This document shows, in pieces, positions 9,162-11,465 of a DNA stretch of 11,465 bases. A model generated the notes under the pieces. The model saw nothing but the letters and a program-made list of their open reading frames with translations, ran no database searches and was not told the origin of the DNA. The position numbers and the translations under genes were made by a program. Origin of the DNA: a virus. Taxonomy: Duplodnaviria > Heunggongvirae > Uroviricota > Caudoviricetes. How positions within the stretch are numbered: position 1 is the stretch's first letter; each line of letters begins with the position of its first letter. Location: the IMG/VR virus record IMGVR_UViG_2534681766_000006; one strand, written 5' to 3'.

Positions 9162-9484
9162 CGACGTTAACTCAATGCCAGCAGCAGGGGCTGGATATGC
9201 TGATTTCTTACCAGCAAGAACGTGGCTTTCCGCCAACCAATCAGGAGGTGGCAACCATGCTGGGATACCGTTCGGTGAATGCAGCGGTGGAGCATCTTCG
9301 CGCACTGGAGAAAAAAGGCGTCATCACGATAAAGCGTGGCGTGGCCCGGGGGATAACTCTTCATACCGCGGTGAAGGACGACGACAGCGAGGCGGTCGGG
9401 ATTATCCGCGCACTGCTTGCCGGTGAGGAAAACGCCAGGCTGCGTGCAGCCCACTGGTTACATGAGAGGGGCCTGAAAGTATGA
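9158..9484 (+). CDS. LexA N-terminal DNA-binding-domain homolog lacking the S24 peptidase domain, 108 aa
   Basis: LTQCQQQGLDMLISYQQERGFPPTNQEVATMLGYRSVNAAVEHLRALEKKGVITI aligns at roughly 40-45% identity by eye with E. coli LexA residues ~4-70; no Ser/Lys catalytic domain; ATGA coupling to Dam. Confidence 0.8.
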   Translation: MTTLTQCQQQGLDMLISYQQERGFPPTNQEVATMLGYRSVNAAVEHLRALEKKGVITIKRGVARGITLHTAVKDDDSEAVGIIRALLAGEENARLRAAHWLHERGLKV

Positions 9485-9777
9485 AGCTGATCTTGCCTTT
9501 CCCTCCCAGCGTGAACACGTACTGGCGACACCCCAACAAAGGGGCGTTTGCTGGTAAGAGTCTGATAAGCGCAGCGGGGCGCAAATTCCAGAGCGCGGCG
9601 TGCGCAGCAATAGTTGAGCAGTTACGTCGTCTGCCGAAACCAACGTCGGCACCTGCTTCAGTGGAGATCGTGTTGTTTCCTCCGGATACCGTGGCATTTG
9701 AAGAGAAGTATGGCTCCCAGCTGGAGCTGATATTTCGTTTTATCGATCGCGCACTGGCGATTGGTGTGCTGGCCTGA
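9481..9777 (+). CDS. RusA-family (Holliday-junction resolvase)-like protein, 98 aa, with divergent or shortened C-terminal half
   Basis: N-terminus [13 protein letters not shown] matches RusA LPWPPS.N.YYRH, and ..VEIVLFPPD matches ..IECHMPD; the Asp-rich catalytic segment (RRRRDLDN.. in RusA, recalled) is not recognisable. Confidence 0.6.
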
Positions 9778-9794: not shown

Positions 9795-10178
9795 ATGCGT
9801 GATATTCAGATGGTTCTTGAACGTTGGGGAGCGTGGGCGGCTAATAATCATGAAGATGTGACCTGGTCGTCCATTGCCGCCGGTTTTAAGGGATTAATTC
9901 CTTCAAAAGTAAAATCTCGCCCGCAATGTTGTGACGATGACGCGATGATCATTTGCGGGTGCATGGCCCGTCTGAAAAAGAACAACAGCGATTTGCACGA
10001 TTTATTAGTAGATTATTATGTAGTCGGTATGACATTCATGTCACTGGCAGGTAAGCATTGCTGCTCTGATGGTTATATCGGGAAAAGGTTACAGAAGGCT
10101 GAGGGCATAATTGAAGGGATGTTAATGGCATTAGATATCCGGTTAGAGATGGATATCGTTGTTAATAACTCTAATTAA
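9795..10178 (+). CDS. Q: Late-gene antiterminator Q (small DLP12 QuuD-like type), 127 aa
   Basis: Start ATG 9795 with GGAG SD (the track's TTG 9780 is rejected); Cys-rich (CCDDD..CGC..CC); position immediately upstream of the nmpC-type porin as in DLP12. Confidence 0.75.
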
Positions 10179-10198
10179 TATGCCAATTGTTTACTGAA

Positions 10199-10229
10199 AG
10201 TTATTAAAAATGGGGCGTTGCAACGCCCC
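10199..10229 (-). terminator. Rho-independent terminator of the porin transcript
   Basis: Perfect hairpin GGGGCGTTG/CAACGCCCC (10212-10229); minus-strand RNA follows it with AUUUUUAAU; the plus strand has an A-tract instead, so it is minus-specific. Confidence 0.65.
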
Positions 10230-10367
10230 CAAAAATAAAGGGTAATATATAACAGAAGGTTTATATAGTTAGAAGCAAGGTTGTGCTCCTAAAGGAAGTG
10301 GCTTGAGGGAGCCACTTATATGTTGGGGAGGCAACGCCTCCCGCAACATATCTTTTTCGTAATCAGA
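10199..10367 (-). ncRNA. ipeX: IpeX-like 3'-UTR sRNA region of the porin gene (about 168 nt from stop to terminator)
   Basis: Two more hairpins (10296-10317 and 10326-10342) between the stop and the terminator. From my recollection of the published ipeX description, it maps between the nmpC/lc stop and its terminator in DLP12 and PA-2. Confidence 0.4.
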
Positions 10368-11465
10368 TTAGAACTGGTAAACCAGACCTACAGCAACGAT
10401 GTCATCAGTGCTTACACCGAGTGCTTTAGTGAAGTCATTTTTGTCAAGCAGGTTGATTTTGTAATCAACGAAAGTAGACATATTTTTGTTGAAGTAATAG
10501 GTTGCACCTACATCAACATATTTGACTAAGTCCTGATCGCCCCATACTCCAAGATCCTTACCTTTAGATTGCAGGTAAGCAACGGACGGACGCAGACCGA
10601 AATCGAACTGATATTGTGCAACAGCTTCGAAGTTTTGAGCTTTATTAGCAACGAAGTGATCAGCAAATACAGTCATATTCTGGGTTTCAGAATAGGTAGT
10701 GGCCAGGTAAATGTTGTTAGCGTCATATTTCAGACCTGCGGCCCAAACTTCTGCATTTTTACCGGAAGCAAATACTTCAGGAAGAACTTTCCCTGCATTA
10801 ACTTGAGTGTCGGTACGATCAGATTTCGCATAAGTTGCACCGATACCGAATCCTTCGTATTCATAGGTAGCAGAGAAACCGAAGCCATCACCGTTACCTT
10901 CGGTGTAGTTATCGAAATCGCTACGATCGTTTTTGCCTTGGTACTGAGCAGCAAAGTTCAGACCATCAACCAGACCAAAGAAGTCGTTGTTACGATAGGT
11001 TGCAACACCAGTGGTGCGACCAGTCATGAACACATCTGTTTGGGTCCAGGTATCGCCACCGAATTCTGGCAGAACGTCAGTCCACGCACCGATGTCGTAT
11101 GCTACACCGTAGTTACGGCCGTAATCGATTGAGCCGTAGTCACCGAATTTCAGGCCTGCAAATGCAAGACGGGTTTTGTCTTTGGAGGAACCTTGAGATT
11201 CAGCGCGGTTGCCTTTGAATTCATATTCCCACTGACCGAAACCAGTCAGCTGATCGTTGATTTGGGTTTCGCCTTTGAAGCCCAGACGAACATAAGTAGT
11301 ATCACCATCATCTGCATCGTTAGAGGAAAAGTAGTGCTTGGCATTAACTTTCCCGTACAGATCCAGCTTGTTACTGTCTTTATTATAAATTTCAGCTGCC
11401 TGAGCAGACATCGCCATCAGTACTGATGCAGCTACAGCAGAAATTGCCACTGTTAATTTTTTCAT
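10368..11465 (-). CDS. nmpC: Outer-membrane general porin of the OmpC/OmpF family (prophage NmpC/Lc type), 365 aa, complete
   Basis: Signal peptide [38 protein letters not shown] start, C-terminal ..VGLVYQF; start codon at the window end (11463-11465), so the promoter is outside the window. Confidence 0.93.

Follow-up and report, generated by a model that had tools for sequence, protein, structure and literature searches.

The closest described system is found in lambdoid prophages of E. coli: the Lc/NmpC-IpeX module of lysogenic conversion, the function of which has been published (PMC12197685, PMC5069750, PMC8065619, PMC3333887). Lc of phage PA-2 and NmpC of the prophage DLP12 belong to the OmpD/NmpC clade of general porins (PF00267); their genes lie on the opposite strand between Q and the lysis genes, and immediately 3' of the stop codon of the porin gene lies the RNA IpeX. 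The abstract of the original IpeX paper (Castillo-Keller, Vuong and Misra 2006, J Bacteriol 188:576) reportedly found no complementarity, and is also said to have found that Hfq is needed for ompF. IpeX is 167 nt long (PMC12197685), is carried by PA-2 as well (PMC8065619) and represses both OmpC and OmpF (PMC5069750, PMC3333887, PMC7177473). Concerning its mechanism, base-pairing by IpeX is denied in a 2013 review (PMC3617542); the RNA has also been described as Hfq-independent with a single likely-direct target, the regulation of ompC being Hfq-independent (PMC8313858), and as not relying only on complementarity (PMC12197685).

We analysed a stretch of 11,465 nt of viral DNA (hereafter the window), in which a Q antiterminator gene is followed on the other strand by a porin gene. 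Because the porin and its 3' UTR are nearly identical to those of PA-2 and DLP12, we identify the locus, with a probability of about 0.9, as this same published Lc/NmpC-IpeX module. The module is already known and was rediscovered here; the single new point is a mechanistic hypothesis of pairing between IpeX and its reported targets. The features of the region are the following:

9795-10178, plus strand: Q antiterminator gene of the QuuD type (PF06530, 181 bits; RefSeq name quuD)
10368-11465, minus strand: Lc/NmpC-type general porin gene (intact ORF and translation; stop codon TAA at 10368-10370)
10201-10367, minus strand: IpeX region, the 3' UTR of the porin mRNA (98% identity to DLP12 ipeX and to the PA-2 lc 3' region; published length)
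10318-10351, minus strand: hairpin 1 (predicted fold; 15 bp with one bulged C)
10296-10317, minus strand: hairpin 2 (predicted fold; 8 bp, 6-nt loop)
10269-10292, minus strand: hairpin 3 (predicted fold; 9 bp, 6-nt loop)
10246-10267, minus strand: hairpin 4 (predicted fold; weak 7-bp A-U stem, 8-nt loop ACCUUCUG)
10234-10261, minus strand: predicted seed, IpeX nt 110-137 (energies, shuffles, background scan, paralogue survey and conservation)
10212-10229, minus strand: intrinsic terminator hairpin of the porin/IpeX transcript (terminator scan; tail AUUUUUAAUAA at 10201-10211)

The porin ORF encodes 365 aa from an ATG start with zero internal stops in its translation, and Pfam Porin_1 (PF00267) covers the protein over the whole model (1-337 of 337, 521 bits). 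The earlier note had described an intact 365-aa porin on the opposite strand just after Q, and the uninterrupted ORF with its full-length domain bears this out. The protein also passes the NCBIfam OmpC-subfamily model (527.8 bits against a cutoff of 484). It has a signal peptide of 23 aa, with cleavage between AQA and AE and a mature start AEIYNK, and ends in VYQF, the last residue being aromatic. In total, 362 of the 365 residues are identical to those of PA-2 Lc (the three substitutions are V59A, R99H and V154F), and the same number to those of DLP12 NmpC, reconstructed by joining the two fragments on either side of IS5 in K-12 (V59A, G149Q and T151A). The identity to the K-12 chromosomal porins is 64% for OmpC and 59.5% for OmpF. 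Many prophage copies of this porin carry the PGAP label 'ompC: porin OmpC' (RefSeq E. coli, H119-H143), which could mislead counts of ompC copy number.

The last bases of the window are the ATG of the porin, so the porin promoter and 5' UTR lie outside it. The porin leader of phage PhiR29_1 reads ...AAAAAAAAGGGCUCACGAUG, and the PA-2 record annotates two CRP sites upstream of lc. It is very improbable that the porin and its tail have decayed into a silent remnant of the kind that nmpC is in K-12. Such decay has precedents in K-12 DLP12 and phage 434B, where IS5 is inserted in the gene after codon 346, whereas the ORF is intact and full length here, as it is in PA-2; over its entire length, moreover, the window shares 99.5% identity with the left and early arm of PhiR29_1 (integrase to Q and porin), which was deposited as a complete phage genome.

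An alignment to DLP12 ipeX had been proposed earlier as a check; when run, it revealed a clear similarity. Positions 10150-10420 align to the quuD-nmpC intergenic region of DLP12 in MG1655 with 0 indels and five substitutions in 271 aligned bases, and the 3' UTR is 98.2% identical to the DLP12 ipeX locus over 170 nt. The same value over 170 nt is found downstream of lc in the PA-2 record (J02580.1), with an identical set of five differences. Of these, one falls within hairpin 3 (G-U instead of A-U), two are located past the terminator and two in its loop; none touches the proposed seed, which the IpeX of DLP12 and PA-2 shares with the window. In all three loci the RNA occupies the same site, directly 3' of the porin stop, with the same terminator at its end. 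With 362 of 365 porin residues shared with each of the two and a 3' UTR at 98%, the earlier reading of a lysogenic-conversion porin module like DLP12 nmpC and PA-2 lc is supported. We infer from this near-identity that IpeX is expressed and represses OmpC and OmpF in this lysogen as well.

The distance from the stop codon to the end of the terminator tail is 167 nt, which fits the published length of IpeX (PMC12197685). On the basis of that length, IpeX would extend over about 10201-10367, beginning with the base next to the stop codon and running on for 11 nt beyond the stem of the terminator.

The distribution of the tail was followed through bacterial and phage genomes. The 172-nt tail is present, at an identity of at least 91%, in approximately 2,510 of 5,426 complete E. 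coli genomes, that is, in nearly half of them. It is also found in 36 phage records, all of Escherichia or 'Enterobacteria' phages, and in a majority of the 120 IMG/VR contigs that matched the pattern of the porin 3' end. All copies are limited to Escherichia, including E. albertii, and are at least 87% identical. No relatives of IpeX outside Escherichia were found in 80 porin loci of other Enterobacterales or by BLAST in distant mode against phages and E. coli genomes, and the chromosomal porin genes of other Enterobacterales have a short terminator only past the stop codon. The IpeX tail seems to be an addition specific to phages. The closest chromosomal relatives of the porin are the OmpD/NmpC-like genes of Citrobacter, Enterobacter, Salmonella and Lelliottia (loci L005-L022; 73-79% aa identity); they contain no IpeX-like tail, and their leaders are not complementary to the IpeX seed.

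Two main forms of IpeX are seen among the IMG/VR loci (L166-L205 and L086-L165). The window and DLP12 have a tail like type A; in type B there is one additional C at nt 9, hairpin 2 is altered and the terminator is preceded by one or two U fewer. Some phage porin genes (L148, L188 and L090/L105) have an unrelated short 3' end with a terminator only. In Rfam 15 the tail had 0 matches at the gathering score, and no family is named IpeX; a permissive search returned chance-level matches only (RsaOG, TarB and AniS, E 0.2 to 0.8). The ipeX annotation is also absent from the RefSeq records listed, MG1655 included. The lack of both an Rfam model and a RefSeq annotation is probably the reason why the module looked unannotated.

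Concerning the phage context, Q comprises 127 aa with its ATG at 9795 and is separated from the porin gene by 189 bp (10179-10367); as Q is on the plus strand and the porin on the minus strand, the two genes are convergent. In both PhiR29_1 and DLP12 the holin-endolysin-spanin cassette comes after the porin gene, on the other strand. The placement of the porin moron, on the opposite strand between Q and the lysis cassette, can therefore be read on the Q side within the window and on the holin side from the 100%-identical stretch of PhiR29_1 and from DLP12; it is the placement of Lc/NmpC in PA-2 and DLP12. A promoter scan of 10179-10367 found no promoter-like site that could be the late promoter PR'. 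Work on DLP12 reportedly places the late promoter upstream of the holin gene, past the porin, which would put it beyond the end of the window.

Compared with PhiR29_1, the window is without approximately 1.9 kb (L003 1075-2983), with the junction at about 9683-9691. The resulting chimeric ORF of 98 aa (9481-9777) begins with the N-terminal part of rusA and continues into the C-terminal end of the YdfU/DUF968 gene. As rusA is truncated by this deletion, the Holliday-junction resolvase is probably inactive in this prophage. A plus-strand ORF of 69 aa (10320-10529) runs antisense to the 3' end of the porin gene. Its counterparts are 'ORF1' in the old GenBank record of PA-2 and a 'hypothetical protein' in that of phage 434B; we found no support for this ORF as a gene.

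The minus-strand RNA of 10199-10370 is predicted to fold into four hairpins and a terminator hairpin with an energy of -62.4 kcal/mol. The average of 200 dinucleotide shuffles is -33.8 +/- 3.8 kcal/mol, and 0 of the 200 match the fold of the 3' UTR (z = -7.6). The terminator (GGGGCGU-UGCA-ACGCCCC followed by AUUUUUAAUAA, -13.9 kcal/mol) is the sole terminator-like site on the minus strand across this stretch according to the scan. The 3' UTR spans 138 nt between the stop codon (10368-10370) and the stem of the terminator at 10229, against the roughly 140 nt given in the earlier note, and the four hairpins predicted before the terminator are in line with its count of at least two. Its 'strong terminator' is indeed an intrinsic terminator at 10212-10229; its strength was overstated, and we grade it as moderate because the U tail has five U only.

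The four hairpins differ in how they vary between copies. In the E. albertii copy, one pair of hairpin 1 is U-A in place of C-G, a compensatory change. The top two pairs of hairpin 2 are disrupted in the type B variants, so this hairpin is without covariation support. Hairpin 3 has one change of G-U to A-U, and one of its pairs is disrupted in type B. Hairpin 4 on its own has an energy of -2.1 kcal/mol. The copies of IpeX, none of them below 87% identity, are too similar to give the hairpins more than negligible support from covariation; this, together with the pairs broken in type B, leaves them as purely thermodynamic predictions.

Read on the plus strand, the palindrome of hairpin 1 is followed by CTTTTTCG and has a hairpin energy of -21.3 kcal/mol. 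It is plausible, judging from the sequence, that it serves as the intrinsic terminator of the rightward Q transcript; the terminator scan missed it because of the bulge. At 10318-10358 the plus strand reads hairpin 1 and then CUUUUUCG. The candidate terminator lies beyond the body of IpeX, so Q transcripts would be antisense to IpeX: a Q mRNA that ended at this terminator would be complementary, in its 3' part, to the entire IpeX body, the proposed seed included. Such an antisense Q transcript might counteract IpeX or switch it off during induction.

These elements also bear on the possibility that the 3' UTR acts in cis only, its structures being convergent terminators or insulators between Q and the porin and hairpins that stabilise the 3' end of the mRNA, with no role in trans. 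The terminator on the minus strand and hairpin 1 with its T run on the plus strand would both suit such a role, and stable 3' hairpins commonly protect against exonucleases. We nevertheless consider a role in cis alone improbable. It leaves the invariant anti-Shine-Dalgarno stretch described below unexplained; cis and trans roles are not mutually exclusive; and repression of OmpC and OmpF in trans has been reported for the nearly identical sequences of DLP12 and PA-2 (PMC5069750, PMC8065619).

A BLAST search of the tail against the 80 porin loci of other Enterobacterales returned a 19-nt antisense match at the translation start of many ompC orthologues. A reading of the plus strand as a vestigial porin 5' leader was rejected, the similarity to ompC ending at 19 nt with no start codon after it. 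All pairing energies were calculated by windowed hybridisation combined with accessibility, in one pipeline throughout; RNAduplex on full-length sequences had produced unrealistic long-range duplexes and was replaced by this procedure.

IpeX nt 110-124 (AACCUUCUGUUAUAU; 10247-10261 in the window) extend from within the loop of hairpin 4 through its 3' arm, the loop ACCUUCUG being an anti-Shine-Dalgarno sequence. They are predicted to form 15 contiguous pairs, one of them G-U, with positions -21 to -7 of E. coli ompC, over the Shine-Dalgarno sequence GAGGG. Flanking pairs would stretch the ompC duplex to -31 to -6, with a total energy of -13.0 to -15.6 kcal/mol. For ompF, the best site is formed by IpeX nt 112-134 (which include UUACCCUUU) with -14 to +9, covering the Shine-Dalgarno sequence and the start codon at -11.4 kcal/mol. 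The cost of opening the seed stretch in IpeX is 3.3 to 4.3 kcal/mol. As a positive control, MicF paired with ompF at its known site at -13.3 kcal/mol; the negative controls gave +0.5 kcal/mol (IpeX with ompA), -2.2 to -4.3 kcal/mol (IpeX with the leader of its own porin) and -4.1 kcal/mol (MicF with ompC).

Chance helices are inflated here, as both IpeX and the leader sequences are rich in A and U. The 15-bp ompC helix was attained in 9 of 2000 dinucleotide shuffles of IpeX and the ompC hybrid energy in 5 of 300; the ompF match alone is not significant, being attained in 612 of 2000 shuffles for the helix and 66 of 300 for the energy. When the complement of the 15-nt stretch, with G-U allowed, was searched in the 3.28 Mb of DNA assembled for the analysis, on both strands, all 26 non-self matches were Shine-Dalgarno sites of ompC orthologues. 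The hybrid energy of IpeX nt 100-141 was also calculated with the leaders of the 80 porin loci. The lowest values are those of the 26 OmpC orthologue leaders (-21 to -25 kcal/mol), followed by the four Serratia OmpF-type leaders (-19.8 kcal/mol); the remaining paralogue leaders are at -5 to -15 kcal/mol, and the 13 OmpD/NmpC-type leaders, which belong to the clade of the phage porin, at -5 to -9 kcal/mol. In a set of 32 distinct IpeX variants, among them the E. albertii copy at 87% identity, no invariant run is longer than nt 110-130; the stretches predicted to pair with ompC and ompF both overlap this run.

The simplest reading of these pairing data is a loop-initiated anti-Shine-Dalgarno interaction that would hit both reported targets and spare the phage's own porin. 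We therefore propose, at about even odds, that IpeX acts by antisense occlusion of the ribosome-binding sites of ompC and ompF through one invariant stretch of approximately 25 nt, the proposed stretch consisting of the hairpin 4 loop, its 3' arm and the UUACCCUUU that follows. On this reading, the module would be a self-sparing device for porin replacement that tells porin paralogues apart. The long perfect duplex with ompC and the shorter one with ompF would also fit the two statements on Hfq: the need for Hfq that the original abstract reportedly gives for ompF would go with the shorter duplex. The reported Hfq independence of ompC would go with the long one (PMC8313858).

A serious though not favoured possibility is that IpeX represses OmpC and OmpF with no mRNA pairing, for example by titration of a protein through its hairpins or by an indirect envelope-stress route, the complementarity being fortuitous. 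The published statements that IpeX does not base-pair (PMC3617542), is Hfq-independent (PMC8313858) and does not act only through complementarity (PMC12197685) all speak for this, as does the ompF match, which is not significant alone, and the three stable hairpins could be protein-binding sites. A fortuitous match would, however, have to fall exactly on the Shine-Dalgarno sequence of both reported targets, overlap the longest invariant run of the RNA and reach energies on a par with the MicF-ompF control, while the complementarity is missing from ompA, from the leader of the own porin and from OmpD/NmpC-, PhoE- and OmpN-type leaders. Since the 2013 review denies base-pairing by IpeX, we put forward antisense occlusion as a testable mechanistic hypothesis and not as a new element. 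The conserved Shine-Dalgarno match to ompC and ompF goes beyond the published accounts of IpeX read for comparison, and the predicted 15-bp match to ompC offers a precise hypothesis for the mechanism of IpeX.

In the proposed sequence of events, the porin gene of the lysogen would be transcribed leftward from its own promoter beyond the end of the window, and the transcript would stop at the intrinsic terminator at 10212-10229. The 167-nt 3' UTR, either within the mRNA or processed from it, would be IpeX and would lower the synthesis of OmpC and OmpF post-transcriptionally, as published for the nearly identical sequences. If antisense occlusion holds, the loop and 3' arm of hairpin 4 and the single-stranded UUACCCUUU would pair with the ribosome-binding sites of ompC (15 contiguous bp) and ompF and block the initiation of translation; this step is computational and conflicts with the review statements. 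The phage porin would still be made and so would take the place of the host porins in the outer membrane. The module is in this sense textbook lysogenic conversion, in which a prophage swaps the major porins of its host for its own, and the swap would alter permeability to antibiotics and nutrients and take away OmpC as a phage receptor.

Small RNAs that derive from a 3' UTR and share the terminator of the mRNA, such as CpxQ, DapZ and MicL, are an established group. Like them, IpeX is embedded in the 3' end of a coding transcript, uses the terminator of that transcript and has a U-rich stretch just before the terminator hairpin; it differs in that its regulation of ompC has been reported as Hfq-independent (PMC8313858). 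The other comparison is with MicF and MicC, the chromosomal antisense sRNAs directed against ompF and ompC, respectively. These pair with their targets, whereas pairing by IpeX is denied in reviews (PMC3617542); if the predicted pairing is real, IpeX would occlude the same Shine-Dalgarno and start region, at a predicted energy similar to that of MicF with ompF. IpeX has no sequence relationship to either of them. MicF and MicC are free-standing genes, whereas IpeX is the 3' UTR of the mRNA of a competing porin, and, unlike MicF and MicC, a single IpeX RNA would cover both ompC and ompF.
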